A stretch of 64,000 bases of DNA from Amoebophrya sp. A120 (GCA_905178155.1 CAJINV010000007.1:3552265-3616264), one strand, 5' to 3'. Shown: positions 1-64,000, counted from the stretch's first letter. Made by a program: numbers and translations. Notes: generated from the sequence alone by a model not told the origin.

Positions 1-1612
1 AGATCAGAAGTTCCCTCGGTTCACCAGCCCTTTCGCAACAGCTGGCACGCGTTGTCAAATGGCCAAAACCCCTCGCACCACTCCGACTGCTTCCCCTATG
101 TGGAGCCCGACAATCCAGAAAAGAAAAAGAACTGCTGGAGCCGGTCCGTCACGGCGTGGCAGGTCCGCGGGAAAAACTATCTGAAAGACAAGAAAAAAAT
201 CGCCTCGCCCCCGCCCTTCGCGGTAGGCCTCGCGGCCGACATCTGTGACTGCCCCACGGCATTAGCGGTGTACGCTAGGCATCCAGAGGGATTTGTTCAG
301 GTATAGATTGATGAAACGACTTTTTCAGAACAAGAATTATGATGGATTTATTCGTAAAAATTTTGCGATCTGGATGAAGATATTGATATGATATGGACCA
401 TGAGTAGAACATCTTCACATTGTTCTTCGTGGTACGCCGCGAAATCGGAAAGAATAATCCCAAAATCAACAGCGTTGTCGAAAGGGCGGAGAGGGTCGGT
501 TTCTGTTCGTGCTGAACTTTCGCTTTACCCCGAAGCATATCCTTTGCAAAAGTATCGTACTCGTACAAATGCCCGTCTTGCATGACAGATCTACTTGCAT
601 ACCTGCATCTGCATGACAAGTTGCGCTTTTTCTTCTGCAGAAATTTGTCATACTCCTTCTACTAGTGCGATAGTTTTGTAATGCATAAAGCACATGGTCC
701 TTGTGTGGGCCCTGGACCACAAGGAGTACCAAGACCCGATGTTCCAGAACTTTCTCTCCCTGCCGCCGGAAGAGAAAAGCAAATATTCTGAGTAAAAACG
801 TCCCCACCCCAGAGTTGTCATGCAAATGTGCATGCCAAAAGCATCTCATGCGGAGCCCCGTGAGAAGCTCTTTCTAGGCGAGTTTTGGAGTTTGTGATGC
901 TACAATCAGCATGATATGCTAGATTTATGATGCCCTGCTGAAATAGCCAAACAGGATTACACTTTGAGGGCAGACTTGTGATGCGAAACAAACAAAACTG
1001 GTTGATCTGTCTAGCAGGTTTGCCATCTTGATACCTTTCTGGGGACGTTTTTCCTCGCAATAGCAAACGCTTCAAATTCATCCCGTGCCTCGTCGAAGGC
1101 CCGTGGCTGGTCCGCCAGGCGGTGGGGACTAAACCGGCACTGCTGGGCAACAAAATTAAGTCCGATTGGTACCAGGGGGACGACTTTATAGAAATGTCCG
1201 TCGACATCTTCTCCTCCTCGTACGCCTCGCAAAAGTATCGCACTTCTAGTGCAAAACTGCATCACAATTTTTTTCAAGAACAAGGATGCAAGTTGTCATG
1301 CTATGTCAGGTGCTTAGAAAGAAAAATTAAGTTAGGGTTGTCATGCATGACTGGAATTATTTTTACCTGTGCGATACTTCTTTTGCAGAGGATACCTCGG
1401 CAGCCAGGGCGATTTTGGGGGTGACCAGCGGTGCGGCGCGGAAACTGATTCTGGAATTCGGTTTGTTGCTGGAAGGGCAGTCTGTGGACGAACTACCGGA
1501 GAGGATGATGACCGGATTTCGCATCATTTTCCCGGACCTAGACAAGGCGAGACTGATGTCTCCGGAGGAGGGCATGCCGCTGCTCAAAGGAGGCGGGGCG
1601 GCGCAAGGATAG
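1..1612 (+). CDS. EDR2 C-terminal (DUF1336) domain protein, 5' partial, 5 exons in window
   Basis: Motifs WQVRGKNYLKDKKKI, FLFVLNF, RFKFIPCLVEGPWLVRQAVGTKPALLG, FIEMSVDIFSS, LLEGQSVDELPE are typical of EDR2-C. The frame is continuous after removing GT-AG intron 301-472 and elements 538-687, 784-1062 and 1221-1394, each with one TSD copy. Confidence 0.85.
538..687. mobile_element. TIR introner, family B
   Basis: TATCCTTTGCAAAAGTATCGTACTCGTA ... TACTAGTGCGATAGTTTTGTAATGCATA; perfect TSD AAGCA; removal gives FTPKHMVLVW. Confidence 0.9.
784..1062. mobile_element. TIR introner, family C
   Basis: TATTCTGAGTAAAAACGTCCCCA ... TGGGGACGTTTTTCCTCGCAATA; TSD GCAAA; removal gives EKSKRFKFIP. Confidence 0.9.
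1221..1394. mobile_element. TIR introner, family B
   Basis: TACGCCTCGCAAAAGTATCGCAC ... GTGCGATACTTCTTTTGCAGAGGATA; TSD CCTCG; removal gives IFSSSAARAIL. Confidence 0.88.
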
Positions 1613-2672
1613 CCGAGAAGCCTACCTACGCAATCAGACAGACATCACGACGACGTCGTGTTGTGCATTCGCCACAAGTGCTGGTTTGTTTCTGTGAAAT
1701 CGAGTTCGCCGGTGCAGTTTTCTTCGGTCTTGAAGAGCACTGAACATGTACTATACACCTTTCTCGATATTGAGCAGGACCACTGCTTTAGAGATGAATA
1801 CAGAAATCATATGATAGCGATGTTGAAATAATAATTCTATATTGATCTCTCAAGAACTCGAACTCGATGCTCAATACAATATAAGCTTAGGCTCACCTCA
1901 AGAAACTCTTTCGCAAAAAGTTGACGAGCAATGACTAGAGCTGGAGCTCACGTAATTATTTGAGGCTTTTATTTCAGCAAGAGCTTGTTGCTGGTGTTGT
2001 CATAATATTCCACTGCATCTAGCAGTTTCGACATCATATCGCCGACTCACGACTCTTGGATCTGGAACTTTCGCGGTCCCAAATCTTCGCTGCACCTCTA
2101 TACGCGTTCTGTGGTGGCAACTGGCTGCATCAACTTTATTTCACACTACAGGGCCATGTAAGTCAAGTTTCTGAGCGACGTGATTTTTCGTGTGGCGGTC
2201 ACTTTCGTATTTCTGTGATCTACAACTCGGCGTCGGTCTATAAAACCATGTTGATATAATTACACGTCGGCATAATTCGTGTTTTCTCCTTATACGGTAT
2301 GAATTGTGTCTACTTCGATGTTTTTACGAGACTAACTCCATACACATGACATTCTTTCAAACAAGTCATGATGTTGCATGCTACGAAAAATGCGCACACG
2401 ACGGGTAAATTAATAGCCTTTTAGGGCGGAGGATGGTGAGGACTTGGCTGCAGCCCCCCCCCTCTCGAAGAGGCTACACCGTCGACGCTTTCGTGATTGA
2501 TGGCAAAAGGCTACAACACGAGCCGTTCGCACACGCCAAGCGCTGCAGCAGGGGTACTTGATTTATAATTCGCCCAGCGTTCTCCTTCCGCTGCGAAGGT
2601 GTGCTGGGAGCGCTGGTGGAGGTGTGCAGATTATACGTAAAATCTGCCCGAAGCGCTAAACAAGTTGTCAAG

Positions 2673-5600
2673 ATGACGTCGAACAAGCGCACTCGCAGCC
2701 AGGCCACTAGCCACCACGGCGGTTCATCTGGTAGGAACAACAACAATACGTTTTTCCTTCACGACAACCATAGTGGTCCACCAGTTCCGCACCCGGACAA
2801 CTACAGCCACAATCTCCAGCCATACAAAAAACGAAAGAAGGAGGAATTGAAGGAGATTTTCCGAAGACCTCAATTCGACCCGGAATGGCGACAAAGTTTG
2901 GAAAACTTGTTTCAAAATGTATTGGAAGCAAAAAACAACAATGACAATAAACTAACAGTACAACAAGACACAACATCCGCGAACAAAACTTCCAAATCAA
3001 AACGAAGGAACAGCAAGGACACAGCAGGGATGATGAACAACGACAATTTTCTTTCCAAGCACGAGAAGGAGCAGAAGTTACTGGATCATTTTAACCAGAA
3101 AAACTTTAAGCAGGCGGATGAAACTGCGCTGGAAGCTGCGATCGCGTTTTTGGACATCATGGAGATGCAGAGGAGTGACTTGTTGCAAGAGTTGTTTGAA
3201 AACTTGTCCACGAGTTTTCACGAAAAAATGGAGAAGCTGATAGCGGAAGACGACAAATTTCTGAAAAAGCAGTTCTTCCCCGACACCGAACTGAATTTGA
3301 GCGCAGCGGCAATAGCGCTGAACAGCAGAAGGACAGGAGAGTTGTCCTCGTTGACTACATCAAGTAGTTCTTCTACACAAGCGGTTCTTGTTTCATCTGA
3401 AGGTGGCGAACGGCTGCAGATGATCACGTCGCAACTTCATAGTGCTGAAGGAGGAGTGGGTGATTCCGCTGAAAATCCGGATCTGCAACAAGCCGGTACG
3501 AAAACTCCCAGTGCTGGCGGATCGTCGTCCTCGTTTAGGACGACGACCTCGAATCTGAAACCAGCCACAGCGGAGCAGCAGGCTGCCGCGCGAAACCTGC
3601 AAGCGGCGATCAAGTTTCACCGACAGAAGAAGTTTTTCGGTTCCGACGTGATAGGTGCGCAGGTGTTGCTGGAAGATTTCGAGGAGCGGAAGAGGCAAGA
3701 GAAGCAGAAGAAGCAGGAAATGCGACCACCAGTTTTGAAACCGAGGGACATCTACAAAAACAATCGAGCAGGAGCGGTTTTCCCTACAGGACCACCACCT
3801 GCACCGACTTCTACAAGCGCTTTTGACAATACCTTCAACCTGGCAGAAGTGCATGAACCCGCAGGAAGAACAACAAGAAGTTCTGCCAGTGTAGCTGCCA
3901 GCTCTGATAGCCTTTTCAATGCGGTGTCCGGCCTACTGCAGGAAGAAGAAGAGCAAGAGTTACAAAATGCCGCCAATATTAATGGTGCGACAACAATCGC
4001 GACGACTGACCCCGACCTGCTTCTCTGGCGGACGCAGTCCGCCGCCCAGAAACGGATTCGCTGGGACGAAATTTTGTGCGATTTGGTCCGTTACATCTCC
4101 GTCCCGGAGCTGCAACCGCTGCTGAAACTAGTTTTCCCGAAATTTATCCGGGATAGGGGGCGGACCTTTCCGACCATCCCGCAGCTTGTTCATCCGGGCG
4201 GGGGCCCATCTTCGGGTGGTGGTGGCAATGAGGAAGCTATGCACCTAGCTGCAGCCGCGGAGGATTATTTTCCTCCGTGTTTGATTGTCGACGAAGAGCA
4301 GTTACCAGTGCAGTTTCTCTACGTCTTGTCGTTGATTCCGAAGCCACTATTGGAAACACTCTGTGCAGGAGGTGCAGATGATAAGTCGGACGAGGGTCGT
4401 TGTGTCGACTCACTCGATCTCGTCGATGAAGACAATATCGTATCTTCTACCGATCATCTTCATGACCAGGACCAGATATTACTAGCAGGGCCACCACTTT
4501 TATTGCCTCCTGTTACTCATCATTCCGAAGCACTTGCACGACTTTTTCCGTCTCCTCCTGTCCTTCCCCTTCCGCTGAAACGGGTCATCTGGATATTGAA
4601 CATCCGGCTGAAGCTCGTGTCCGATGTTTTCTCCATTTTGTCGGAGGTGATGCAGAAGGAAAGCTATTCGGACATCTTCCGCTTTCTCGACCACGATCAG
4701 GATGGTATTTTAACCAGGACGGACATTCAAAACGCTCTGGGAAACGCGAAGACCAAGGACAACAAGCCGCTGTTTCGGGGGCAGATGAAGAAACACGAGC
4801 TGAAGGAAATCGAGGACATTTTCGTTTCCGGGAACTGCTCGGTAGTGAAAAGTTTCGGAAGGGAAAGCTTCTTCGCGGATATAGTTGCTGCGGATCATCA
4901 TCACGGTGGTCCTCGTGGGGCCCCCGGACGAGCAGCGGTGGATGAACGCGAGCTGCAGTCAGCTCGTGGTCTTGCTTTTGGAGGTCAGCACGACCATATT
5001 GATTTTCCCACTTCTGCCGGTCCCGACCAGGCGGACTTCAAATACCTCTTTCTCCAGGTGAACGCCTGGCAGGAGTACTGCTTTCACACGAACCAGCAGC
5101 TGTTTTTTATCAACTGCATCGAATGTGTCTGGGTCATCTGAAGTAGAGTGCGCTATATTTCTCATGCACGTTTTGCATAACCTTAACCCATGACGTCTGT
5201 GATGCATGTTCTAGCAGCGCAGGTTTTTTGAGGGCTGTTCGATGCCTATGCTGCAAGAGAAATGCCCTTTTCGCGCAGCAAAAACTGGACTCCTTTTGCT
5301 GCTCATGCAATACAGATCATGCTTTTCGAGTTCAAAGGGAGCGTGACCAGTTGCAGTCGCTCTCCTCCAGACCCAGACGTATTTGCATTGCATATTTCTG
5401 GACGACATACAGTCTCTCGTTCGACGCTACGTCCGCGAGAAGCGACAGCGTCACTGCGGCCTGGCGCTGGCCTGGATCAAGACGAAAGACCGAGCGGACT
5501 TGCGGAAACAGGACAAGACCTTGCAGAAGATCTTGGAGCTCATCGGCGATAGCAGATTGCTATACGTATGACAATGCGCAACTCGACGTCCCCCTCCCCC

Positions 5601-8600
5601 TTATTTGTCATGCAAAATATCAAATCAGCCCTACCTTTTTCCTCGCCCAACCCCCGGGGAGGGAATCCTTGGCCTGTGGCGCTGGGTGCGGGTGTCCACT
5701 ACATGATGACGATGAAGCACTGCTTGCGTGGCAGGTTTCGGATGCGCAAACAGAACTAGAATCGGTCGCAAATTAGTCATACAAAAGCTGCATTTATGCC
5801 ACCGCGTGTGTTGCTCTTGCTGCTTTTGCCCTTCAAATGAGGTGGAGGGGGCGGGGTTCTTGTGCACTCTCATAATGCGCGACTCTAGTGCAGTACTTGA
5901 CGAGCGTGCGGACCTTGGAGGAGGAGAACGACGCAACAGGTGCAGGTGCTGCTGACCAAGCTGCAACTGGTCCACTTCTCGATGATGACCAAGAAGGTCG
6001 TGTAGGTAGTACCGGAGCTGCTGGTGCCCCTACTGCCAGCCACGCAACAAGAAAGAAGAATGGAGTTCAAGTTCTTGGAGAAGCCATGTATAATAATTCT
6101 TCGAGAAGTTCTGGTGCTTCACCACGACACGTCGGCCGCGATTCATCTTCACAAAATCAACTTGAAGATCCCGAAATGTCAGAACCGGGCTTCACCCGCT
6201 GGCGACCAAAAACGAGTACGGACTTCGAGCCGTATTTGTCTATGTTGAGGAATGACCTATTGATGAGTTTCGTCGACCGCAAAGTGCTCGAGCCGAGCTT
6301 AGAGGGCCGGTGGGTCGTGGAGTTGCTTCCAGCCCGGGAACTAGCGCCGCAGGTGGATTACTACTGGCGGCAGGCAGTGCACACGTCGGCTGCGGGTGCG
6401 GGTACAACAACTGGCATAGCTTCAGGCACAACGATATGGGACTGTCAACTGTTACATTTTCGACTCCTGTTACATGAGCTTGTAATTGCACAAGTATGAG
6501 CACACTTCTCCTGTATTCGCAATTGTGTGTTTCAACTTTTTATATCTTTTCTTCTCAAAGTCAAAAGTAGTCAAAGGGGGAAGTTGTACCCCTAGCATTA
6601 CAAGATTCTTGTAACAAGAAACTCCGCACAGATTTACTACGTGCTGTTTAGCCCCCCACCTTCGCAAGTTTGTCATGCGAAGCAGCTTGATCGTGTGGAT
6701 CGATGACGATGTTGGTAGTTTTGCATGGTAAACCCATGTAACAGCTGAGAGCGTTGTAACGTTTGGGAATCCCATAGACGACAACTCCAGGCGGAACTCT
6801 GTCGAAGACGAGCCACCCAATGACACCCTCCTCCAGTGGCGGCCTCGACCGGATTCTGTCCTTTGCCATGGTCTTGACCCGCGACGGGCGAGCGCAGGTT
6901 TCTCTGAAGCAACGCGATTTGTTGTTGCTCCTAGGTATCAACATGCAGGACAATTCAACTGCATCGCAAGCGTTGCACTACGAGGACATGCTAGCTGCTG
7001 CGGCGGAGAGTAACGAGGAAAGGACGAGGGGCGGGAAAAATTTTGCTGACATCCAGCAAAATATTAACAGCAATTGCTACCATCTCACGTCCACAAATTC
7101 TCAGTACAAGCATTTTCAGCCGATCAGCAAGAAGAAACTGCTGCAGGAGTTGGTTCCGTCTTCGAGCCTGAAGGTCCGGTGCCGAAACCCAAATTTGACG
7201 ACCAACGCTCAGTGGAAGTATTACGTGCTGGACACGGCCGAGAAAATCCGAGAAGTACAAAACAAATTTTCGCAAATCGAGTATCGCCCCGTGATTTACG
7301 ACTTTTTCCTCGAGCTGGATTACGCAAAGACCTTGCACACTTCGTTGAGTACTACAACTACGGTGAAAAATGGTAAAATTACAACTAGTACACCAATAAA
7401 TAACATGATGCTGAACAAAGTCTGTCGCAACCTTCACCTCCGCTTTGAGATGCATGAAGACATGAAGCTGATGTACGGCACTTGGCGAATCGCGGAGAGG
7501 GACGAAAATCCGCTGCAATTATCAGCCGAGATAAGAGCAACTGCAGCTCAGCAAACTGGCACAGGAACTACAACTACAGCGGGACCGGGCGTGGTCTCTC
7601 TTTCCCAACAGCAGCAGGTGGATGTGAAAGAGTTAAAATGGAACAGTTTGTGCTTTGCAAAACGAAAGTTGTTCTCAAACTTTGTGAATGCGAAGACGAA
7701 CGAAATCTGGGACGAGCAGGCGTGTCTGATTGAAACGTTGGACCGGCGGGTCATCCCCCAGTGCGGACTCTTCGGCATCAACTCGGACACCGATGTCGAG
7801 TTGAGCCAACTTTTAGTGAAGCAGTTGAACAGCGGCAGCTACTCGGGTGGAGGAGGTGTTGCGAATGCAAATAGTAGCTCTAATGTAACAACTGCTGGCG
7901 CATCATTAAGTGGCTACGAGTCGAAACTACTTCAAACCGCGTTTGTGCTTGCCGATCCAAATTTACACGTGAGTCTCGCGCGGGGCTTGTGCAGCGTGAG
8001 GCAATGGAGCATGCTGAATTCTGGCGCTGCTGGTTCGACAACTACCGGCACTTCTTCTACTGCGTCGCAACATCAAGAACTCTTGACCAACAAGAAAAAC
8101 AATAAATCGCAAGAGCCTGTTGCTGGACTTTCTGTGCTTATCAAATCTCTCGCTGGGGTCGAGGAGCAAAACCAAAAGCCGCGCGGCGGCGAAGACCCGG
8201 GGGGTGGACCAAAAGGTGACCAAAAGAGCATCTTCGACCGTAGCAAGACCCCACCACTCGGAAGCAATGTGGGGCTCATGCAAGGCAGAAATGCAGGCAG
8301 TGGTCGAACAGAGAAAACGCCACGGCTGCTAAACTCAGAAGATTTAATGTTCGCTTCCAAAAAAGCAGCGGGAGCAAACAAATCGCCCACCAAAATTGCG
8401 GCTAAGCAGCATCATGACAAAGAAACCGATCAGAAAGAGAAAGACGACGGCAACAGCCTCCCTGTACCAAAAAACAGTTGCGAGGCCGCGGAATTCCTTT
8501 CACTGGCTTTGCTGTGGCTCGCAGCGCACGTCACTCAGCTGTACGAAATCAGAGCGGCAAGAACGATGACGACGACGAGTACAACTACTAATCGCAGTGA

Positions 8601-10034
8601 AATTGGTGGTAGTAGAGCACAAGATTCATCTCGCAAGCCCAACAATTCCTCGACCAAGAAGGTTCCGCCTTTCGAGCATTTCTTCGAAACCATACTGTTA
8701 GTCCCGTCACAGCCGCCGTCCGTAGCAGGCCCCGCTAGAGGAACGGTAGGTGGAGGTCCATCCTCTTCAGCGCGAACAAACAGCACACGGGCCGGTGGCT
8801 CTGGATTTCTTCCTCCAAATCCTCGACCATCTTCGCAACAGTCCTCTGCTGGAGGTTCAGAACCGCAGCTGCAGCCAGTGTCTGTTGCGTTGCTGCGATT
8901 GCCACGGCACGTGTTCAACCACTCCTGGGAAACGCCACAGAAACTCTTTCAATCCGGCGGCACGAACGCGGAAGCCGAACTGGAAAGCGCTTTTTATAAC
9001 GAGGAAGACGACCTCCAGCACCTCGTGAACAAGCAAGGATCTTCAAACCACGGAACAAAAATTAAGGACAACAATTCTACTTCTTGTCCTTCCCATTCCG
9101 CCAAGCAAACCTTCGCCACCCTGTGTCTCCTCGCATTCACGCTTCGCCACTTATGCACTGCAAAAGTATCGCTATCGTACTCGTAGTCATGATTCCACGA
9201 CCCTCGTCGCATGACCAATCTACTTTAGTGACTGAATCAACATTACAGATTCCATTTTTGTTTCTGAAAAAAATCGTAAATGCAATTCCTACTAGTACTA
9301 TTCTATGCTTTTGCAATGCATACCACTGCTGGGGCGCCGATCACCTTTCGTTGCAGCCGACGTTACTGGAACTGAAGCCGGTGATTGAAACTGGGTTGGA
9401 GATGAGGAAAATGGCGCCAGAAAATTCTTGCGAAAGCAATGGGGTGGTGAGAAACTTGGACAAAGAGGACTACGAGAATCTGATATTAAACGATGTTGAG
9501 CAGCATCATGCGGTTGCGGGGCTTGATCATCACAACGGACGAGGGGACGACACCAGCAAAAACAGTACATCAAGTACAAGACCGTCAAAAATCTCCTGGG
9601 CAGTCCAGTTGTGGCTGCAGACCGTTCTGAATGTCTGCGGCTCCGAAGACCGAGCGACGAGGTTCAACGCGGACATGCGAACAACGGTTCTAAATTTTCT
9701 CTGCGATACCGTGGTGCGCAAATCGGTGTTCGGGTGCTTCATCACGCTGTCGCTGTTGGCGAAGATGTTTTTTAAACTGTCCAGCAAAACGAACTGGGCG
9801 AAGAAGAAAGACGCGGACTACCTGAAGATCCTCGCGAAGACGGGGAGGATACAGGATGAACGCAATGCGGATGGTTTTTTTCACTTTCAAAAATGGTTCG
9901 AATCTATTGTCGACGCGTACGACAGTCTGAATTTGCAAAACGTGAGCAGCAACGCAGATTTAAGAGAGGGGGATGACCATTTCATGCACGAAGAGTGGTA
10001 CTCCTGCGAGTTCCACGAACGGGCACCTCATTGA
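2673..10034 (+). CDS. NELFB: NELF-B/COBRA1-like protein, greatly expanded by low-complexity insertions; 3' end uncertain
   Basis: Ordered motifs AIAFLDIMEMQRSDLLQELFENL, YISVPELQPLL, LKRVIW, NQQLFLDDIQSLVRRYV, LQKILELIGDSRLLYATLVQYL, LRNDLLMSFVD match the order of conserved NELF-B blocks as recalled. Introns at about 5108-5394, 5567-5874, 6494-6777 (GT-AG) and 9152-9322. Confidence 0.7.
5108..5394. mobile_element. TIR introner, family A (degenerate)
   Basis: TATCAACTGCATCGAATGTGTCTGGGTC ... GACCCAGACGTATTTGCATTGCATA; TSD TTTTT/TTTCT; removal gives NQQLFLDDIQ. Confidence 0.82.
5567..5874. mobile_element. TIR introner, family D
   Basis: TATGACAATGCGCAAC..CCCCCTCC ... GGAGGGGGCGGGGTTCTTGTGCACTCTCATA; TSD ATACG/ATGCG; removal gives LLYATLVQYL. 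Confidence 0.8.
9152..9322. mobile_element. TIR introner, family B
   Basis: TATGCACTGCAAAAG ... CTTTTGCAATGCATA; perfect TSD CCACT; joins ORFs 6820 and 9084 as LRHCWGADH. Confidence 0.9.
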
Positions 10035-11639: not shown

Positions 11640-14600
11640 ATGCCGTCCGCGTCGAGCAGTAGCAGCTCCGCGGGGGGAGCTGCGGGGAGCAAAAACGGCA
11701 AAAGGGAAAATAAGGGTCCTGGGGCAGCAGGTGCTCCTGGTGCCTCTTCCAGCTCGGCCTCGGCGTCCTCATCAACGGCGAATAACAATAAAAATGCAGC
11801 ACCAGCAGCGGCAGCCCCTCCCGCGAGCAAGAAGGCCATGCTTCCCCCATCGTTCAAGCCGGTCAAAACGGAGAAGAAGGAGGAGGTGCTTGCGGTCACG
11901 AATAAACGTGGGCGGATAATTATGGAAGAAAAAAAACTGTGCAAGTCGAAGTGTAATAATCTGTAAAAATGTAAAGCAGGCAGCACAGTTATTCTATACA
12001 CTTGTCATGCTTGTGGCCATTCGTCGTGAGGTCTTAACTTATTGCATTATTAATATTTCTAAGAGCGAGGTAACAAATGACCCGTTAACTCGCACCCGCG
12101 AGTTAGCCGTCCGCCCGGCCGGCCGGGCGGTTAACTCGCGGTTAGAAATGTAGACAAATCGAAAGGTAGCACAAATTTGAATCGAAGTGCTCGCCAATCC
12201 TAATTTGTCTACACTTCTAACCGCGAGTTAACCGTCCGGCCGGCCGGGCGGACGGCTAACTCGCGGGTGCGAGTTAACGGGTCACTTGTTACCTCGCTCT
12301 AAATGTGTTCTTTATATCATGTCTTTTTCCCGTACGTAGTAAGTACCAGCTGTGCATGACATGATGCTTTCTGTGTCAACATTCTGAACAGATTTGCAGC
12401 CTCCCATGCTACACTGACACAGATTTTTTCTGGGATAACCATCGAAGTGAACGAGAAGCACGAGGGTGAAACCGTTGTGATGTCTGGGAAGCGAAGCGCT
12501 GTCGTGACGCAGGATACTCAGCAGGGCGAGCCGTTGACGAAGGGCACGGGGCTGCTGGGCAACTCTTCGCGGCCCGGGGAAGAAACCGACGCGGACGGGA
12601 AAAAGAAGCGAAAGCCGAAGGACGCGCTGAAGGCCCTAAGGATGGCCCACGAAAGAAGAAGGAAGAAGTTTATCCTATCCTAATGTGCATCAAAAGTGTA
12701 GATCGTGTTCTTACTTGTAATAGTTCTTCCATACATTTTTATAAAGAAGATGCAGATGATGTGGTCTATGCTGCATCTCTCTGATTTCCCACCTAGTGCC
12801 TGATTTGGCACGTACAAAGTCCATATGATCGCACACTGCATGCAATCGTTACTATTCTAGTTGCACAGCAATCAGAACGCTTTTGCAATGCATACATCCC
12901 GGACAGTGATGACAGCGACATCGACGATGAGAATTATCGCAGGAAAAAGCGCTTCACTTCAAGATTGTGATGCAGAGGATGGAGCAGAGAAAGGAGTGCT
13001 TGTCTTCTTGATGATCTTGCTAGAAACCAACGTAACTAAGACATTGCATTTGTTTGATCGTGGAAGCGCGCATGGCACCAGTTTTTCTCTGTCATGCGGG
13101 ATAGACTTGCCTGCATGGCATGCACATCATCCTGCAAAGTAGGCAACAACAACATCACGTGAAGTAAAAGCTCTCTTTTCGTTCTATAAGAACGCCCCGG
13201 TATTTGACGCCGCGCACTCCGCACTGCTCACCCCGGTCAAGGATGTGGCAAAAACGTGGCAAGTCGACATCCAGAAAGAGCTCAGCGGGTACGATTTTAT
13301 TTTTCTTTGTGGGAGCTGTGCATGAAAATGTTTGAACATGCTTCGGCTTTTCTCTGTTCGGAACATGCAGTCTTGTACGTAGTGGTCGCATCGAGAAAAT
13401 AGATAAATTCTTCAAAAGGGACACTTTATTCATTGTTTCTTGATAGCCCTAGCTCTTCGGAAAGCGACAGGCGCTTCTACGTCTGCAGGAGCAGCTGCAG
13501 CAGATACATATTTTATATTCAAGATAACTACTACTGCAACTGAAACTGATACTGAAGGTACTTTCACCTACTGCGCAAGCTGAAGTTTGGCGGTAAAGAA
13601 TTCAACATGAATTTTGCAGAAGCCGCTCTTCTTGTGCAAAACTTAAGCAAACAAAGAAAATAAAAGAAATGAAACGCGGCGCGTCGTCAACGTTGCAACG
13701 GCTAGTCGCACTGCTTTTGCTTCATATTTTTTTTTTTTTAATGTAGTACTTGGCGTCATGACCGACAGTCAACTCCGACAGCCTCCATAAGAGCTTGAAT
13801 GAATGTGGAACGCTTGCACCATGATGAAGTTCTTGCGCAGAAGACGCTTGAACAAGAGAGGGCTGCATGCCAAGCCCTTGCGCCATTGTCACGTTGAGTA
13901 GACTCACTCTCTATTGAGTTCTTGTGCGTGCCTCTTCTAGGGTTAGGGTATTTATAGTACCACGAAAAGTATGTTGCTTTACCGACGGCGACGATCTCCG
14001 CCCAGCGTCAGACGGCGCGCGGCCGGCGCGTATTTTCTGTATTTTCGTTTCATACAAAACCACCTCCCTGTACCTCAAGAAGATGGACCAGCTGCACGTA
14101 TCCAATGTAAAAACGTCCCCACCCCATAGTCAAGATGGGAAATCGGCTAGACAAGTGCGCAGGTTTTGGCTGTTTTGCATGACAAATCTGGGCTCGGAGT
14201 GCAGTGCTGTTTGACGTAGTTCAGCAGCATCACAGATCTCGTATAACATGCCGACTGGCGCATTACAAATTCCAAAACACGACTAGAGAATGCTTCTCAT
14301 GGGGCTCCGCATGGCAAACATTTTGAGCATGCAGATTTGCATGACAGCTCTGGGATGGGGACGCTTTTGCACAGGATAGCACGAGAAAGTGATGAAGCAA
14401 CTGGAACTGCTTTGGTCGAAGGGTGACGCGGAAAAGAAAAAGAAGAAATCGCGGTACCGCAAAGCCTAACCAATGCAAAAGACGTGTCGTAGTCGTACTA
14501 ACTGAAGAATGAATAGCATGCATGATGAGAAATCGTGTTCCTTTTTTTAGCCAGATCAGTATGACAAATTCTTGGTTGAGAAAATTTGTCATGCAATTTG

Positions 14601-17600
14601 TATGTACTAGTGCCTGCGATATAAGTTTTGCAATGCATAAGGCCCAAGCGCTGAGCGACAGCTTTCAGTGCGAGTTCCTTTGTGACATCACACCCTTATG
14701 AGAGTGCACCTTCCCGCCCCTTCGACCCTAGAGAAATGCTCATGCAAAATACAAAATCTATATTCAGTTTGCGCCATTCATTCTCATCTTTCATGACAAG
14801 CGCACGGCTCCAGTTGTCCCACTGCGTCTATTTCTATTCGGCGCATGAACTTGTTACGCACGGTCTCCACGTTGCTTGCTGGTGTTTACTGTATTGCTTT
14901 TGCTTGATGTCAAGTCTCAGTCATACAACAAATGAGCGGGCGATGGAGTCAGTTGTGCGCTCTCATATCGTTTCGTAAAAACCACGGTGCGGGTAACATA
15001 CGCATTTGAAAAAAATGATGATTTTATATCGTACAACTGGCACAAGGGATACGTATACGAATGCGAGGAACTTCATTTTCGAACTGGAAAAACAGAAGTA
15101 TGCTGGTGCTGACGAGGCAGTTTTTTGATTTTGTTTTAAGTAGTAATTTTTGTATAATTTTCATCATGCAGCAGCACCGCAAGCATAATAAGTACGTAGG
15201 TGTAGTACTACTACTATTGCCAATGCCATTGCGATATATTAAAAAAAGACTTTTGGAAGTGATACGAACCTGACGGACGAGGAGCTTGAGGCGCAGGCAA
15301 TAAAAGAAACGGTTCTGCGGCGAGTCCCACTCTGGCTCATGCCCCGCGAGGAGGGGGATCGAAAGCGAAAGGAGTTTAAGGTTAGTGGGGAATTCGAATT
15401 ATTACGACACAAGCAGATCGTCATCATTCATCAATTATGTTCTACGATGTGAATTATGGCACCGAAAGCAGGAGATGAGCAGATCGAAATCTTCACTTTT
15501 TACATGACGGACCTGGGGGCAGAAGCTGTTGCAGAAGGTCACGTGACAGCATTGGATTAACATCATTTTCATGTGTACTTAAGTACTACTTCACGTTCAC
15601 TTTACAACTTGAACTCTATCAGATTCAAGGGTGCACCGTGCACCGTGGCGGAACGTACCTTCTTCTGGAGCAGGACTTGAGGCATTGTGACCTGGAGGGT
15701 GATGACATGGAGATTGACATTTACCCCCAGAATATCCAACAAAAAAACTGTTTCACTGTGATGATCTTGCAAGATCTGCATCACAAGTTTGTAACACATG
15801 ACACAGAAAATTTTCCATGCGCGCTTTCCCAGGGAAGACACGGTAGAAGAACCAACATGAACATCTTGCAGGTGTAGCAAGACATCAAATCGTTCTGTGC
15901 TCCAACATTCTCTGCCTCACAAGTTCACGACAGCGAAACAGCTTTTTCTTGCGATGCAAAACATGCCGCCGCCACCAGACCACCTGCAAAACGTGCGCGA
16001 CCAGATGGAACTCGAGCAACAGCTGGATGAGAGGTATGAACTTGACTTAGCTCATCTGAATGAGACAGTTCTGCATATTACTGAAATTGTACTCGTCACA
16101 TTTGGAAGATTTGCGATTTAGTTTTCAACTGGTGAGGACACATCGTCCCCACCACTGAAAATATTCAAACGAAAATTTTTGTCGTCCTTGTGCAACTACG
16201 CGACCACCAAAATTTGTAAATTTGTACGTGGTCCAAAACCAAGACACAAACATTTTCGACACAACCAGCGGTGTGGGTTTCGACGACTTTGATGTGAACG
16301 TTTCCGGCACACCTCCGATGCAGGAAAACAAGAGCAAAATCGACCCCCTGTCGGGCGCAAAGACGCCGGGCGGGAAGACGCCTGCGAAAACTCCCGGTGC
16401 GCAAACACCCGGCGACAAGCTGAACCAATCCGGTTTCGGTGGGACACAGGGTTTCGACGGCGGCGGCGGAGCCGGACCGAGCCAAGGCGGCGCGGCAGGC
16501 GGTGGGATAGGAGGAGGGCTACCCGGTGGCGTAGCGCCGGGCATGGCGGGAGGCGCGGGGCAGGGTATTGTTGAGAATAAAATTGGTTCCTGCTGCCCGA
16601 CGACCATGCGATAGAGTTTCATGCATTGCTGCGTCGCGCTATTCGTTTGCGGTTTTTTACATCGGTGATTTTGTTTTTCTGATTCTATTACGATACGTAA
16701 GTACCAAACTATTTCTGCAGCTACGTAGTTATTTGTTGTACTAGTAGTACCACGTAGTACCTTCTTTTGCGCGACTTGATGTCTTCATCACCAGGTGGGT
16801 CTGCTGTGTGCTCTTGTTGTCACGAGGAAGTGGAACCCAGGAGGGGTTTGCAACCTCCAGGGGTTCTGCTTGCCTGTGCAAACCGATCACGCGCAGCACT
16901 TCTACGAGAAGTAAGTAGATGAAGCTGCAAGAAGCCTTCTTGGCAAAGTAGAGTAAGCAACCCCTATCGTCCCATATCATGATTTTATCGCAGGTGCATT
17001 TCCAAGCCAGTCACAGGGCATGAATATGCAGCCGGGGCAGACGCAGCTGCCGCCATTCTTCGTCCCGCCACGAGAGCGCCCGGAGGACATGAGTACGTCG
17101 ACGTACTGGCACTTCATGGACCCCTATGCGGGGGTTCCGGGGGGCGAGTCCCACACCCAGTACCTCGACGGCTCGAATTCCCACTGGAAAGACCTGCCAA
17201 CGGATTACATCCTCTGTCCGGACCCGATGCGGGCGCACATATGCATTGCAAAAATATCGTTATCGCACTCGTCTAAATAATTGCAACTACAGCACGTCTC
17301 GTGCATGATTTTTACAGGTTAGTTTTCTTGGCTGAATCTGCACTACAAATTTCATTTTTGTTCTGGTGAAAATTTGTAAGGCCATTGATATTTAGTGCGA
17401 TGAAAATTTGAATTTTGCACTGCATAGCACTTGAAAATTAACAACCGCCTGGAAGAAGCGGATCGGTGGGAAAACATCTTTGACCTGGACGTCCTGATGA
17501 ATCGCGAAGACCGACCAGCTATGCAGTGCAAATATGCCGCGGTCCGGATTTGCATTTGTCATGCGGGGTTTGAAGGACAGAGACAACATGAATAAGTGGG

Positions 17601-34442: not shown

Positions 34443-34522
34443 NATCATGGCTCATGCAAAAGAACGTGCGTGACAAGCCTTAGAATCTTCCAGACATCAT
34501 CCAGGGATATTTGCAATTGATA

Positions 34523-35477
34523 GCTGCGTGAAGCACACTATGAATTGCAAAAGTATCGTACTCGTATAAATGCATGACAAATTGTTCCCCCAGCATGAGA
34601 ATTCAATTAAGATTTGTAATGCGGATTTACCTTGAGAAAAAAATTTGTAATGCAAGACTTGCATTTATACGAATACGATACTTTTGCACAGGATACACAC
34701 AATGCTGAAGTTTGGGACCGCTTTCCAGCAGTATCAAATGTAAAAATGTCTGGGTCTGGAAGGATGCAGAGATTTGTGATGCAGCTTTGGCATGAACCCT
34801 GATGTCTGTGATGCATTCCCTAGCATCACAGATTTTTTGAGGGCTTCTTGATGCCTATACCGCATGAGAAATGCCCTCTCGCCGTCGCAAAAACTGCAAC
34901 TCTTTTGCTGTTCATGCAATACAGATTTTTGTAGAATCCAAATGCAGCATCACAAGTTGCATCCTTCCAGACCCAGACATTTTTGCAATCCATAAGCAGA
35001 GTACTTGGACCAGTTGGAAGCAGAAGCCAACGGCGAGCTCTAGTAGTACGAGAGTGCACAACGAACCACCCCCACCTCCCTCTCATTTGTATTGCATGAA
35101 CAGCAATACGAGCGTCCGCACATGTGGAGCCTGTGCATCACAGGTTCATGCGCGTAATGTAGTACTGTTTGGGGTTCCAGAATCTGTCATGCAAACTGTA
35201 CCACAAGGCAGCACTTGGATTTGATGTTTTGCATGACAAATGAGGGGCTGGGGATGAAGAAATACTCGCGATGTTTTTCGCGGTTCTGACCCTAGATCTC
35301 CTGCGTCCGAAGCTGCTTGCGGCGACGGTGCAAGGGTTTTTGATGTGGCGCAGTCGGGTATGCATGACAAATGAGGGGCAAAGGGAGTTGTGCACTGTCA
35401 TACGTAGTACGGCTGGCCCAGCAGTTGGAAGCGCAACCCAACTCTCGCACGTACAGCACAAGTGCTGTCGAGAGTGA
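34523..35477 (+). CDS. 3' part of an unknown gene in micro-exons, truncated by the N join at 34443
   Basis: Removing elements 34539-34695, 34732-34994 and 35047-35402 leaves an open frame CVKHTMLKFGTAFQQSTWTSWKQKPTASSSSTAG..CCRE*. Another frame is also open to 35043, so the frame is ambiguous. Confidence 0.45.
34539..34695. mobile_element. TIR introner, family B
   Basis: TATGAATTGCAAAAGTATCGTACTCGTATAAATGCA ... TGCATTTATACGAATACGATACTTTTGCACAGGATA; perfect TSD CACAC. Confidence 0.92.
34732..34994. mobile_element. TIR introner, family A
   Basis: Family A TIRs; perfect TSD AGCAG. Confidence 0.92.
35047..35402. mobile_element. TIR introner, family D
   Basis: TACGAGAGTGCACAAC ... GTTGTGCACTGTCATA; TSD AGTAG/CGTAG; internal duplication GCATGACAAATGAGGGGC at about 35231 and 35362. 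Confidence 0.8.
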
Positions 35478-53657: not shown

Positions 53658-56600
53658 ATGGAAGGGACCTCAAACCTCGACCTCCAGGAGGTTATGTCCG
53701 GATTCGGAATGTCAAAGCCGCGTCCCACTTTACTTTTTGCTTTCCTTGTCGTCGGCGGCTTCATTTGTCAGACGGAAGTCGCGGCGCATCGAGTTGCGAC
53801 GAGTGCTGCTTCCTCATCGTCTCAGAATGATGGAAGCACTCGACGAAGATTTCTCGCGCCGCAGGATAATGAAGAAGAACTGACCACGAGAGCTGGTGGT
53901 GCAGCAGCATCTGCAATGCAAGTGGATGTTGAGGAAGGTGAACATGTCTCGCCTGAGCACGACCAAGAAGGAGTCGGACCAATTTTCGGCCCACGACCCG
54001 AGCAGCTTGGAGCGAACTTGTTTGATGGGGCTCGTAGCGGACCCGGACCAGGCACTTCGAGCGCACGACCAGTGCCCGTCCTGCGAGACCACGAAGGCAG
54101 AGGCACTTTACTTGCAGATGACATCGAGATCGACGACGCGCATATCATGGCTCCTTTTGCGGACGAGGTAGCGGACGCAGAGCGATTCATCCGGCAATCG
54201 GTAGATGGTGGGGCCGGTCGTGATGTAGATGCGGCCCCCGAAGATGATCGGGGTGCAGTTGTGCTTCATGGCGAAGAAGATATAGAAGATGTTGGCGGGG
54301 AGCACCAGCAGGCCGCCACGGCGCATGATAGTGATACGGAACAAGCACCCCACCCAGACCAAGATGAGGCAGAGGCAAACGCAGATTCGGACTCAAACGA
54401 GACGTCAGAGGACGAAAATGACGCGCTGCGGCCAGAACGCAGGCCTAAGCCCAGCAGCTGTTCCCGTATTACATCTCTCGCTGTGAAGTCCTGCGCTCTC
54501 TTCTTCGGCGTGGTTCCTCCTTTCTTCTGCCTTACGACTCTCCGGCCTCATGCGCGGGTGATAGAAGCCCGAACCAAAGCCTGGAACAACTTTGCTGCGA
54601 CACAAGAAGACAAGTTTGAGACGGACGCATGGTATCGGAACCAACGAGCCACCCGACACCTTGTTGACTTGCCGCCGACGCCTTTCCGGGTGCGAGGCCA
54701 TGAGCACGATGTATGGGCGTTGATTGCTTGGCACCAGCAAAAAGAGCGCGTTTCCCCTTTGCCGACCCCCCACAACAATGTCGGCGAAATAACCTTTTCC
54801 CTTGCCGGCTCTGGGTATATGCACTGCAAAAGTTGTCATGTTATCGTGGTCGCTAGTAAAATTCGCAAGATGAATCAGCTGCACAATAATCTGATATACG
54901 AAAATATTTATTTTGAAGATGGAGATGCAGAAAATGAAAAAAAGGCACATTTGAATTTGTCATGCCAGACCCAGCAATTGAAATTTTTCGAATTACTGCG
55001 AGACGAGCGATATTACTTTTGCACAGAATGACGTCCGAAAAGTTGCAACTGATGTTGTTTCGTTTTGCGGACACGGTGCTCAAAGACGACGGAATCGCGT
55101 CGTTGTACGTGTTGCGAAATACTCAGCTGGAGATGCGGTCGGTGCTGCAGTCCTGCATTGACATTACACATGTGGAGTACAAAAGGCAAAACGCAGCGAA
55201 TTACCCAGACGAACAAATCTACCAAGACACTTACAATACCGCGCTGGAAAAAATGCAAGCTTGCGGAATTGCGATACTGAATGTCATCGATGCTGTAGGG
55301 TTGCGAATGCTCCAGTCAAGAGAGGAAGTAGTCCACGCCGCCGGAGGCGGGGATGGAAAAATTAAAAGCACTAGTGAACGACGACAAGAACTGAAGTCCA
55401 AGAAGCAGCTTTTCACTTTGCTAACGCTCAGTCTGGCGCTCTCGGAACTGGACGCGCTGGAATTCCCGGCCTCACCGCCGAAAAATCAATACGTCTTATC
55501 TGGAGCGCATGGGCAAACATATGCAAGATGATTTTATTACAACCGCCGCACACGTACAAAACCTCCATGCATACAGAAATTTTCGACCTCGAACTCTGTT
55601 TTTGAATAAAATACGGCGTTTCAATCATCGTCTAGGTCTACTTGTTATGCTGAATAGCAAACAAAAATAGTCCTGTTAGGCAGATCGATGAGGTGCCACT
55701 TGGAACAAGTCAAGTTGTACGTGTGCGGTGAAAGTTTCACTGTGGATGCAGCGTCCTGGCTGGAAGAAAGCTTTTTCGGTGCTCCAAACCCTGACCGTGT
55801 GAAGGAACAAGAGGAGGAACTTGAGCGAAGACGGGACATAGAAGCACTACACGATGTTGAGGAGCAACAAGAAACCGCCACCGCGCAGCAGCATGCTGAA
55901 CTACCAGGCACCACAGATACTGATATTACAAAAACCAAGCTCACGACGAGTTCGAAGAGGAAGTTCAAGCTGCCGAGCAGGCTAGAGCGATGGACTGGCA
56001 GCGACATGCTTGTCTGGCTGTTGAGGAGCAACGACCTCACTATGCTACACCTGTACTCGGCCTTAGAAAATCTGCAGCACAAGTTTGTCGAGTACTTTCG
56101 ATACGTACGGGACGAGGTAAGTGCCGTTGATCCACCTCGACGGTCGGCATTGTCCGCGGATGGGGCCAGTGGAGGAGATGGAGACCACGACGAATATTGC
56201 CGGCAACAAGATCATACCGAGGTAGATGCTGATGGCGTGGTCACCGTCAGAACTGGGGTGCGGAATCCGATAGCGTGTCGCTTTTCCCGCTTCGCTCGGT
56301 CGTCCGGGTTGTTCCTGACTACAACTGGGGGTTCTAGTGCAACAGATATGCTGTCGTCGACATGGGGATCCTTTGCTCTTTCATGGAAGAATCTGAATGG
56401 CGCCTGGCAGTCAATGAAAGAGGAGGCTCGGAGGGAGTTGCTCCAGCACACCCTTGGAATGGGAAGCCGTGTGGCGTCAGTACGGAATCTTTTGCAAAGA
56501 CGCATATCGGAAAAGGCGTTCCTGGAAGACGCATCAACTGTCTCCGTCGATGCCTCGTCGGCAACCGCGACCGCGACGTCAGCTGGCGATGGAAGTAGTT

Positions 56601-61549: not shown

Positions 61550-64000
61550 ATGTCGAGCGCCCACTTCGCGAAGCTACGCAAGCTCGATACCGCGGCCGAC
61601 GACTTTGTGAAGCGTTATGGTGACGAAGACACCGAGCCGGCGGACGCCGCCCCGTTGCGGAAGTTGCTCGCGGCCTTGGCGGATGTGAAGAGCCTGTCGT
61701 GGAAACAGGGCGTGGTGATCGACCATGCTGCCGCAAAGGAGCTGGCCCGGCTCGAGGAAGAAGCCAAGGCAGCGGAGGCGGGGGGAGGGACAGCCACAGC
61801 TACCAAAGGCACTAAGATGGGCAAGAAAAAATCCTCGCTCGACAATCTCTCCGAGCCCCCCGCGGCGAAAAAGCGAAAAGTGAAGGAAGAAGTGAAGGAG
61901 GAACCCGAGGACGACCACGACAAAGACAACCAGGATGGAGAACAAAATGCTGATAACGCAGCAAGTAATTTCCTGCAGAAATTCGCCGTCGGCAAGGGCC
62001 AGCCGACCGAGGTGGAGTCGGAAGAGACGAAAAAGCTAAGGGAGATCAGCAACAAACTTTTGCCGGTGCTGCAGAAGTGCATAAAATGGGGCGCGGACGA
62101 AAAGACAGCAAACGCATCCAAGAGCAAAACCATGGAACGCGAAACGGTCGAGTGCTACGGGTACAGCCCAGTTTTAATGGCTAGCGAGGACTAATTCATC
62201 ATGTTCGCTGACGCAGTCAACATCGCTTTTTTATACAGAACTTTTTTATAACACTTTGGATATGATCGCAGTAGGAGCTTGTTGCACAGCACTACTTTGA
62301 AGTTGTTTATGAAACACTGCATCGATAATTCCGACGACGAAATGCACCGTTGTACTACACCTACTTCAAAACAGCGTCGTCCCACTGAAGGCCATGGTCG
62401 CTTACCTGGAGCTGCTGACCATCAAGTACATCCCGACAACCCTTCCCGTCGAGGAAATCCACGTGGATTTGATCACTTCGCTCAAGCAGATTTTCCGCGA
62501 GCTGGTCCAGTCCTGTTTTGACTACCTGAACAACACACAGGCGAATATCACCTGAAAATTAACCATCCCCATCCAATTTGTCGTGCAAAACACGTAGCAA
62601 GTTCTGTGTTTGTCATGCAAAAAGTGGATGGGGATGGTTAATTTTCAGGGAATAGGGAAGTGGGGCATCGAATTCGACCCGATCGTAAAGGAGGAACTGC
62701 ACAACTTCGGCTGCGAAGTGTTGATCAAACTCCACGAGTACGTGGAGAGGAGGATGAACGCCATCCCCGGCCATTTGTTGGATCAGTTGATCGTGCTTTC
62801 CGTGGGCGTTTTCTACTACAACGCGACCACAAACCGGCTCTGCGACGCCGCCGAGAAGTTAGCGATCAGTTTCTACGCGAAACCGGCGACAGCGGAGAAC
62901 ACGTCGAACGTGCGGAAGTCGATTTTCCAGGAGATTTTTGTCAACTTGAACAAAATCCCGCACAAGAAGATGAAAAGGAAGGAATTTTTGTCGCAGTCGG
63001 AGAATTTAACCGTTTGGACCAGGTTCTTTCTCCGGTTGCTCCAATCCGGCTGCAACCCCTACGATTTCCAGATGGATTTGGCGTCCACCGATGATATTGA
63101 CCAGATGGTCAAGACGAACAGCACTATGGTGACGGACGAATATCTGAAGAAAATGTACGAAGAGACGAACGCCCGCGTCGTCACGTTCGCGTGGCAGTTT
63201 GTCCGCACGGTGCTGAAGCCGTCCACGAAGTCAAGGGCCTTGCCCGACGAGGCGAAGGAATTGCTGGAGAATAGTTTGACGGAACTGATGTACGCCACGT
63301 ACGAGCTGCCGCAGTACCCGGTCGCGGTGCTACTGTTGGAAAAATTCACCAGGATTTTCCAAAACTTCGCCGTCTCCTCTGGGGAAAAAGTGGACGCGTC
63401 AACGAGGGATGTCAGTTGCAAGATGCTCGCCTTAATCCAGGCCCGGTGGCACAAGGAAGTGCAGCTCGGCGCCGCGGACGACTGGGAGGACCCGTACACC
63501 ATGAATATGAAGTCCCGGCAGGTGGCGCCCGATCGGGACGAGGCGTTGGACGAGTTGTTCAATGATGATATCGCAGTAGGAGATGACGGGAAGAAAACCG
63601 ACCCAGAGGACGCAATTATGTTGAATAACGAGCAAGATTTAGCCGCACTAGGTGCGGCGTTGGCGGGGAGTAAATTGCCGGCTGTAGAGCAAGCAGCTCC
63701 AGCCGCTGATGCAGCTATGGACATCGACTTTGATAATGGAGCGGCCCCCGCGAATCCGAACGAAGCCGGAGAACAGATAAAAGACGAGCCGAAGCTATGG
63801 ATGCGTCAGGTTTGAAATCGTCAAAGTTGAAATAGTTTGTCATGCATAAAACGGATACCAGTTTGTTAGACCTACAGTCTGTAGTCGGTGCGTGACAAAT
63901 TTTCCCGGTCCTGGAAGCGAGTCTGTCATGCGGTTTAGGGCAAAAGGGCTGCCTTCTGTCATGCTAGTTAGCAGTCCAACTTTTGACCCTTACCAGGACT
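61550..64000 (+). CDS. SCC2: Cohesin loader Scc2/Nipped-B-like protein, 3' partial
   Basis: Motifs RKSIFQEIFVNLNKIP, LLENSLTELMYATYELPQYPVAVLLL and RDVSCKMLALIQAR resemble NIPBL HEAT-region blocks (EEIFTSLARLP, LFENFVQDLL..PEWPAAELLL, RVASLDYLGTVAARL). Introns 62161-62374 (GT-AG), 62546-62654 and 63810-63996. Confidence 0.78.
62546..62654. mobile_element. TIR introner, family E (109 bp)
   Basis: CCTGAAAATTAACCATCCCCATCCA ... TGGATGGGGATGGTTAATTTTCAGG; TSD GCGAA/GGGAA; contains an in-frame TGA, so it must be spliced out. Confidence 0.9.
63811..63992. mobile_element. Degenerate introner whose TSD provides GT-AG ends
   Basis: Residual IR GTCAAAGTTG / CAACTTTTGAC, several TGTCATGC motifs, TSD TCAGG/CCAGG. 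Confidence 0.6.

Follow-up and report, generated by a model that had tools for sequence, protein, structure and literature searches.

Introners of Amoebophrya sp. A120 are absent from transcripts together with five flanking nucleotides and are likely removed in a single register

We analyzed a 64,000-nt stretch of the Amoebophrya sp. A120 genome (GCA_905178155.1, CAJINV010000007.1:3552265-3616264; the window), in which coding sequence is interrupted by introners, short transposon-like elements that sit in a 5-bp target site duplication (TSD). The element plus five bases is absent from transcripts and kept in DNA, and elements in both orientations are removed. Twenty informative junctions indicated that the cut likely lies in a single register, in which the intron starts 1 nt before the element and ends 4 nt after it. 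Position +1 of the intron would thus be the last base of the left TSD copy. The element would begin at +2, with T, A and T/C at +2, +3 and +4, and positions -4 to -1 would come from the start of the right copy.

To detect the elements, the window was scanned for inverted ends bordered by a 5-bp direct repeat. Pairs with 14 or more of 20 arm bases matching numbered 16 in the window, far above chance, as three block shuffles used as the control gave 0, 0 and 3. The final set was curated with profile scans (using a symmetric profile), reading frames, RNA and annotated proteins, with the TA and ATA motifs as anchors. It contains 41 complete elements of 109 to 517 bp, which occupy 15.9% of the window; two further elements are interrupted at assembly Ns. 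The first-pass annotation, made from the sequence alone, had counted about 40 elements of 109 to 410 bp; the count stands, while the length range had to be extended. All 13 perfect TSDs that it named are present among the 17 perfect duplications found, and the remaining TSDs match at 4/5 (13 elements), 3/5 (4), 2/5 (5) or 1/5 (2) positions. It had also stated that most elements lack GT-AG, GC-AG or AT-AC ends, and indeed such an option exists, in any register within the TSD, in only 3 of the 41 elements (12676, AT..AC; 14467, GC..AG; 17240, AT..AC). Since retention would close all three reading frames in 38 of the 41, CAP-H2 and other conserved proteins depend on removal of the elements. Removal is supported by RNA and/or an annotated protein for 33 elements (27 of them by protein) and by the reading frame only for the other 8.

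The 41 introners are listed below with coordinates from terminal inverted repeat (TIR) to TIR, strand, left/right 5-mer and evidence. The inferred intron runs from start-1 to end+4, and k counts the bases of the left copy that stay in the exon. P0001, P0002 and P0003 are proteins annotated as "unnamed protein product [Amoebophrya sp. A120]", to which three window exons are 100% identical. The checksum refers to CAP-H2: from 12671 to 18256, the predicted exons have a total length of 1440 nt, which equals the gap in the X4 contig (see below).

538..687 (+), AAGCA/AAGCA, EDR2_C gene; RNA joint 532 to 688, skip of 155 nt
784..1062 (+), GCAAA/GCAAA, family of 14099 in opposite orientation; RNA joint 777 to 1062, blastn
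1221..1394 (+), CCTCG/CCTCG; RNA joint 1215 to 1395
5108..5394 (+), TTTTT/TTTCT, k 4-5; RNA piece ends at 5106, one-sided
5567..5874 (+), ATACG/ATGCG; reading frame only
6435..6776 (+), AACGA/GACGA, k 1-5; RNA piece starts at 6778, one-sided
9152..9322 (+), CCACT/CCACT; RNA pieces 9146 and 9323 contiguous in X1 and X4
11921..12437 (+), ATAAT/ACCAT, k 3-5, CAP-H2; RNA joint 11918 to 12441, P0001
12676..12894 (+), TATCC/CATCC, k 1-5; RNA joint 12671 to 12896
12935..13188 (+), AGAAT/AGAAC, k 0-4, arms unpaired; RNA joint 12929 to 13189, duplex z -0.9
13644..14054 (+), AAACT/CAAAA, k exactly 4, arms unpaired; RNA joint 13642 to 14059 with no shared base, z -0.2
14099..14378 (+), GCACG/GCACG; RNA joint 14093 to 14379
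14467..14639 (+), AAGCC/AGGCC, k 2-5, GC..AG possible at k 2; RNA joint 14463 to 14642
14697..14967 (+), ACCCT/TCGTT, k 3-5; P0001 and 1440-nt RNA checksum
14999..15264 (+), TAACA/CGAAC, k 4-5; P0001 and checksum
15733..15956 (+), CAGAA/CAAAA; P0001 and checksum
17240..17426 (+), GCACA/GCACT, k 0-4; P0001 and checksum
17520..17775 (+), CCAGC/ACGGA, k 1-4; P0001 and checksum
17879..18251 (+), CGACG/CAAAG, k 4-5; RNA piece starts at 18256 (one-sided), P0001
18959..19234 (+), GGAAA/GGAAA; RNA piece ends at 18952, P0001
19704..19971 (+), TAACG/TAACG, after a micro-exon; RNA, P0001
20036..20299 (+), TAGAA/TAGAA; P0001
20326..20480 (+), TTTTA/TTATA, k 3-5; P0001
20848..21156 (+), CCTCT/CCCCG, k 3-4, within the CNDH2_C match; P0001
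21440..21593 (+), AGGAC/GGGAC, k 1-5; P0001
28728..28836 (+), ACGAG/ACGAG; sequence and frame only
29414..29674 (+), TGCTG/TGCTG; frame only
34539..34695 (+), CACAC/CACAC; frame only
34732..34994 (+), AGCAG/AGCAG; frame only
36939..37082 (+), CGGGC/CGGGC; P0003
37166..37488 (+), CGAAG/CGAAC, k 0-4; P0003
37604..37856 (+), TCGCC/TCGCG; P0003
37976..38237 (+), AAATG/AAATG, GT..AT at k 4; P0003
41562..41812 (+), CACGG/CACGG, GT..CG at k 4; frame only
46718..46988 (+), TCCCA/TCCCA, 20/20 terminal match; sequence and frame only
54818..55030 (+), GGGTA/ACGTC, k 2-4; P0002
55520..55748 (+), AAACA/CAGCG, k 3-5, arms unpaired, z 0.3; P0002
57094..57365 (+), GCCAA/GCCAA; P0002
58333..58552 (+), TAGTT/GGAGT, k 4-5; P0002
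59310..59561 (+), TTGCA/CTGCT, k 1-5; P0002
62546..62654 (+), GCGAA/GGGAA; frame only

Transcript evidence covered positions 1 to 20000, for which the best-supported joints were considered from a set that holds 291 further joints. It came from two contig sets, X1 and X4, whose RNA status is presumed and is not on record. Both behave as RNA: two GT-AG introns are absent from them, the X4 depth is zero in two intergenic bins, and the X1 depth differs by gene (273, 6 to 13, and 149). At the two-sided element junctions among the joints considered, 10 of 10 skip exactly the element plus 5 nt, which agrees with the precise removal claimed in the first-pass annotation. For five more elements the support is one-sided or comes by way of a micro-exon, and in two samples one dominant contig lacks every one of the elements. 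The elements at 784 and 14099, members of one family inserted in opposite orientations (77% identity over 231 nt), were both removed in RNA. A raw RNA run of 2026 (X8) contributed only 6 partial reads, on repeat ends. By contrast, the DNA contigs of X5 showed zero depth at all 11 RNA joints considered and spanned the elements at an even depth of 42 to 48; X5 is possibly the assembly's own sample and one life stage, and contigs lose rare variants.

A perfect duplication does not allow the cut to be placed, while 5-mers that differ show from which copy each base comes. Using two-sided RNA joints, we found that k was 3-5 at 11921, 1-5 at 12676, 0-4 at 12935, exactly 4 at 13644 and 2-5 at 14467; one-sided RNA gave 4-5 at 5108, 1-5 at 6435 and 4-5 at 17879. 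The RNA junctions alone thus allow k = 4 in 8 of 8 cases, and a common k arose in 4% of simulated sets when the cut was allowed to vary uniformly. The joint at 13644, which has no shared base, fixes k = 4 directly and is the only junction pinned to a single k. When CAP-H2 was spliced in silico with its 18 elements at k = 4, the product had 0 differences to P0001, while k values of 0, 1, 2, 3 and 5 produced 11, 7, 6, 3 and 4 differences. For P0002, k = 4 likewise gave 0 differences and the other values gave 6, 3, 2, 1 and 1. The register predictions for 37166 and 54818 were fixed before comparison with P0003 and P0002, and both came out as predicted. Over all 20 informative junctions, k = 4 fits 20, while k values of 0, 1, 2, 3 and 5 fit 3, 8, 10, 15 and 13, so that every other register fails 5 to 17 of them. 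Under a null with a uniformly variable cut, which was our choice, a common register for 20 junctions occurred in 1060 of 2,000,000 simulations. The predominant non-canonical intron ends in Table S4 of PMC7789003, where T stands at +2 in all 9 of A120 and all 9 of strain A25 start with TT, give the fixed register independent support, with some rows perhaps inflated by aligner preference for GT, AG and CT-AC.

At k = 4 the introns share the pattern N-U-A-(U/C)...U-tract...A-U-(A/G)-N-N-N-N. Position +1 is free (A15 C7 G11 T8), while +2 is T and +3 is A in 41/41, and +4 is T32 C6 A2 G1 (T/C in 38/41). Toward the 3' end, the U-tract at -15 to -17 is kept in 37, 40 and 39 of the 41 elements, -7 is A in 41/41, -6 is T in 40/41, -5 is A37 G4, and -4 to -1 are again free. 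GT/GC..AG ends occur in 0/41 in this register, and among the window's 9 canonical donors, 7 are GTA(T/C). The two arms are not equally conserved: +4 deviates in 9/41 elements and its partner A-7 in 0/41 (Fisher p 0.0024, post hoc), and among 123 positions the 3' U-tract has 7 deviants, compared with 23 in the 5' A-tract (p 0.003, post hoc). The difference between +2 and -5 was not significant in these elements (p 0.12, post hoc). Because the profile used in curation was symmetric, this asymmetry is not built in. A-7 is kept while its partner becomes C, A or G; wobble pairing would permit G at -7 and disfavor C at +4, the opposite of what was observed.

The first-pass annotation had proposed a splicing route that reads the terminal hairpin and the direct repeat. 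The proposal was not supported for the direct repeat, since seven elements whose 5-mers share only 1 or 2 of 5 bases are removed with unchanged 5-nt geometry: 13644 (RNA, no shared base), 14697, 14999 and 17520 (protein and RNA checksum), and 54818, 55520 and 58333 (protein). An intact direct repeat is thus dispensable for removal. For a hairpin read in place of sequence, the proposal was weakened. The arms of 12935 and 13644 pair no better than shuffles (z -0.9 and -0.2), and both elements are nevertheless removed in RNA, while U+2, A+3 and A-7 are invariant. Young copies form a strong duplex (median z -8.5); among 11 old elements, z exceeds -2 in 6. A strong hairpin is therefore dispensable, at least in some elements, although pairing at the ends persists, as described below.

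We lean toward removal of the elements by a modified U2-type spliceosome, which the sequence pattern makes slightly the better bet, because the register matches the canonical donor pattern at +2 to +4, A-7 is conserved whether or not it can pair, and removal tolerates a decayed hairpin. Such a spliceosome would read U+2, A+3 and (U/C)+4 as in its own GUA(U/C) donors, with G+1 no longer required. The 3' cut would be placed by distance from the U-tract and from A-7, a candidate branch point, with no need for AG, and the spare 5-mer would restore the exon. The hairpin of young copies may help to bring the ends together and later become dispensable. Since the ends are inverted repeats, both signals would be present on either strand, and we propose that an exonic insertion at any site and in any orientation could therefore be spliced out. 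The same register appears to hold in A25, whose unrelated elements begin with TTA and two purines and whose predominant non-canonical introns start with TT. A wider proposition is more tentative, and we put it somewhat below an even chance: most A120 introns would be handled by a U1-less U2-type spliceosome with the donor U+2 A+3, a branch 7 nt from the end and fixed-distance joining without AG, neither terminal dinucleotide counting, and any TAT..ATA transposon with a 5-bp duplication would become a harmless intron at any site and in any orientation.

Several points weigh against the spliceosomal route and the register on which it builds. For docking of the 3' site, the spliceosome relies on G+1, A-2 and G-1. 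Neither a lariat nor spliceosome dependence was observed, and we infer the route itself. A-7 is found in only 3 of the 9 canonical introns of these genes, and the surroundings of A-7 do not show the U that precedes the branch A by two bases in the usual motif (-9: G22 T14 C5). Old copies show no drift to canonical ends (G+1 in 3/24, terminal AG in 1/24), and the TAT..ATA ends may simply be a transposase requirement. The invariance of TA and of the 3'-end motif is partly built in because curation was anchored there, and the arm asymmetry was not replicated in 140 metagenome loci. Of the 20 informative junctions, 12 come from annotated gene models and not from reads, and 3 of the 8 RNA junctions are one-sided. 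Finally, +2/-5 can pair in 41/41 elements (37 Watson-Crick, 4 GU) and +3/-6 in 40/41, and old elements pair better than canonical introns (median z -1.8 versus +0.6, p 0.0003).

This pairing would be expected if a Euglena-like nuclease and ligase acted in the same register, the nuclease recognizing a short helix at the ends, closed by U+2/A+3 and with overhangs of 1 nt and 4 nt, and making two cuts, and the ligase joining the exons. We regard this route as a serious contender that nonetheless stays on the doubtful side. It would leave +1 and -4 to -1 entirely free and make removal independent of orientation, and it accords with U1 being undetected (PMC7789003) and with the non-conventional introns of Euglena, which have a similar offset geometry (N3CDG...CH'GN5-6) and are reported to form circles (PMC12501133, PMC12621601). 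Against it stand the RNA-confirmed removal of 12935 and 13644 without a significant arm duplex and the z above -2 in 6 of 11 old elements. Pairing alone does not account for A-7 being kept opposite C, A or G, and the register falls on the pattern of canonical donors at +2 to +4, apparently in A25 too. Alternatively, the cut could slide within the duplication from element to element, with k = 4 merely the commonest. PMC7789003 places the inverted repeats (IRs) 1 to 5 nt from splice sites with variable borders, the 17 perfect TSDs are uninformative, and a single junction is pinned to one k. We nevertheless consider a sliding cut improbable, since 20 of 20 junctions are compatible with one k, k = 3 being excluded at 5 and k = 5 at 7; the published spread probably arises because aligners place borders variably in perfect repeats. 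Removal from DNA, by programmed elimination or somatic excision, would suit the transposon anatomy, and the nature of X5 noted above leaves it some room. It is very improbable given the X5 depths. The contigs of X1 and X4 that lack elements lack GT-AG introns as well, and which copy supplies 4 bases and which supplies 1 depends on the direction of transcription, as suits RNA processing. The least probable reading, to which we give almost no weight, is that the joints are template-switch artefacts of reverse transcriptase between direct repeats flanking a hairpin. The phenomenon is described (PMC8240250) and young elements have both features, but the 13644 joint has neither a shared base nor a hairpin, frame closure makes removal necessary for CAP-H2, and a single dominant contig lacks all the elements in two samples.

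The structure of the elements was further characterized in the window and in a metagenome assembly. Window elements carry a TIR of the A120-introner type (8-20 nt, motif TAT-N7-AAA) and form repeated families with 67-83% identity by blastn; the X5 depth is very high on element bins. One metagenome assembly (JACKZZ01) holds hundreds of copies of one family with identical ends. A motif scan for that family yielded 140 loci (L001-L140, JACKZZ01 contigs), from which 115 paired copies were recovered. Among these, 98 have a perfect 5-bp duplication, 1 a perfect 4-bp and 0 a perfect 6- to 9-bp duplication, and the mean flank identity is 0.94 at length 5 versus 0.24-0.31 at other lengths. Copies L038 and L062 are about 480-500 bp and perhaps nested. 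With strict mining, 108 copies could be oriented; most were young and they hardly varied (orientation check 34/36, two training segments being out of frame). Relaxed mining was too noisy, with 11/16 calls exact on the window. TSD composition is mixed at every position in 87 oriented perfect metagenome copies and the 41 window elements. No consistent target or proto-splice-site preference was found in these sets: -1 is G in 42/108 young metagenome copies but in 5/41 window elements. None of the metagenome loci has flanks in common with the window, so they provided no empty site. Where window 5-mers differ as A/T against G/C, the left copy carries A/T in 24/34 cases (p 0.024), whether the position is exonic or intronic.

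In 31/41 elements, short internal motifs like TGTCATGC/GCATGACA occur in both orientations, at 8.8 per kb versus 0.27 outside, and are perhaps transposase-binding subterminal repeats. Fourteen matches outside the curated introns (35135-35362, 41916, 42048 and 63838-63957) may mark further elements. The elements hold 89 such motifs in 10,157 nt and the canonical introns 0 in 2222 nt; having neither an internal element motif nor a terminal duplex, the canonical introns gave no support to an origin from decayed elements. Introner 11921-12437 owes its length to a near-perfect palindrome of about 240 bp and of a different type, nested at 12062-12300 apparently in a TAA duplication, and is still removed. 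We take the palindrome's ends to be PIF/Harbinger-like. The elements at 28728-28836 and 62546-62654, both 109 bp with long near-perfect arms, are of a distinct type; the former is stop-free and in frame, so its retention or translation is possible. The Ns at 34444 and 42111 are assembly gaps that break elements, with a right arm ending at 34522 and a left arm starting at 41872. Nearby sequence recurs at about 34270-34443/40010-40190 and at 39440-39540/40420-40530/42510-42630, and the region 38700-42700 looks repeat-rich or mis-assembled.

The genes and the control introns are as follows.

11640..22063 (+), CAP-H2 gene, 18 introners and 6 GT-AG introns; P0001, Pfam CNDH2_N/CNDH2_C
13289-13557, 15381-15622, 16034-16268, 16565-16993, 19447-19685 and 20612-20786 (+), CAP-H2 GT-AG introns; P0001
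36692..38368 (+), gene with function not assigned, 4 introners; P0003
53658..59860 (+), gene with function not assigned, 5 introners; P0002 (1663 aa)
301..472 (+), canonical GT-AG intron (control) in the EDR2_C gene; RNA joint 297 to 470
31407..31653 (+), predicted canonical GT-AG intron (control); reading frame only
62161..62374 (+), predicted canonical GT-AG intron (control); reading frame only

The first-pass annotation had named EDR2-C, NELF-B, CAP-H2 and Scc2 as genes whose conserved motifs are restored by removal. Pfam supported two of these names: the first gene of the window matches the EDR2_C domain, and P0001 (1295 aa) is CAP-H2, with matches to CNDH2_N and CNDH2_C. Searches with single exons gave no match, and the names NELF-B and Scc2 were not confirmed; an Rfam search of the window gave no match. 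CAP-H2 has 24 introns in one 1295-aa gene, with micro-exons of about 17-31 nt between adjacent introns (14972-14998, 19686-19702 and 20305-20325); its GT-AG intron 13289-13557 is bordered by the 5-bp direct repeat GGTAC without inverted arms. An intronless gene with HIT and DcpS_C domains lies at 42853-43554, and long genes at 23134-24582 and 49999-52743 are apparently without an element, though their neighbors hold many.

The elements are the introners of Farhat et al. 2021, with which they share the strain label, the IR motif, the 5-bp repeat example and the RNA-supported removal, as the first-pass annotation had indicated. It was also right that the removal mechanism is left open in the literature found. 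Our literature search, which included reviews of 2024 and 2026, came across neither a fixed register nor the U+2/A+3/A-7 pattern, nor the finding that the repeat is dispensable; most subscription papers and figures lay outside its coverage, and among them Farhat Fig. 3 and S19-S23 may already show part of this pattern. In place of variable, unknown borders, the results would give a rule: N|UA(U/C) at the start, then a U-tract and A-7, and four free bases at the end. It could correct annotation, can be compared with genome-wide RNA data, and tells which bases to mutate and which adenosine to probe for a lariat. If the spliceosome is responsible, exons would be ligated without G+1 and AG, with bearing on the constraint of the catalytic core; if not, a Euglena-like splicing route would have a second, independent origin. 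Either way, the rule would explain how a transposon can fill exons at will.

The A120 introners described in PMC7789003 have an IR motif of TAT, 7 variable nt and at least 3 A, a TIR of 8-20 nt, a direct repeat of 3-5 nt and many families, while the IR motif of A25 is unrelated. According to that paper, about two thirds of A120 introns are non-canonical, the splice sites vary relative to the hairpin, the borders are unknown and their removal is left open, the end dinucleotides have no clear signature, and the Amoebophrya spliceosome is near-complete. Our elements resemble those of Farhat et al. 2021 in the features named above and in their many families, and differ from that account in one fixed register, invariant U+2/A+3/A-7, a dispensable repeat and orientation independence, some of which we observed directly and some of which we infer. 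As short, high-copy elements with TIRs, a TSD of constant length and no coding capacity, they are also like miniature inverted-repeat transposable elements, from which they are set apart by their seamless removal at the RNA level. No autonomous partner or superfamily was identified for the window elements, no transposase search having been made; candidate partners are discussed in PMC12130899.

Among other systems, class 12 introner-like elements of Polarella glacialis have a 5-nt TSD with the modes NNAGG or NAGGH (bioRxiv 10.1101/2020.10.14.339549). In the NNAGG mode they are like the A120 elements in that the last TSD base is +1, the first element base is +2, and TSD bases 3-4 end the intron. 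They take AG and G from the target and work in one orientation, whereas the A120 elements need no target base and are removed in both. Fritillaria borealis has transposon-derived introns with TIRs and TSDs and without GT-AG, which are removed by the U2 spliceosome (PMC11282704; PMC13326754, citing Henriet 2019); there AG-AC and AG-AT ends are preferred and U1 is conserved, while the A120 elements have no preferred +1, -2 or -1 and U1 is undetected. A short fixed distance from branch to acceptor is found in reduced parasites, with -8 in Entamoeba invadens. The non-conventional introns of Euglena and diplonemids (PMC12501133, PMC12621601) share with the A120 elements the lack of GT-AG, direct repeats and unpaired overhangs of fixed size, the 3' one being the longer, and with young A120 copies also the terminal pairing, while their signature is N3CDG...CH'GN5-6|R, in contrast to N-UA...AUR-N4, and circular products are reported there.

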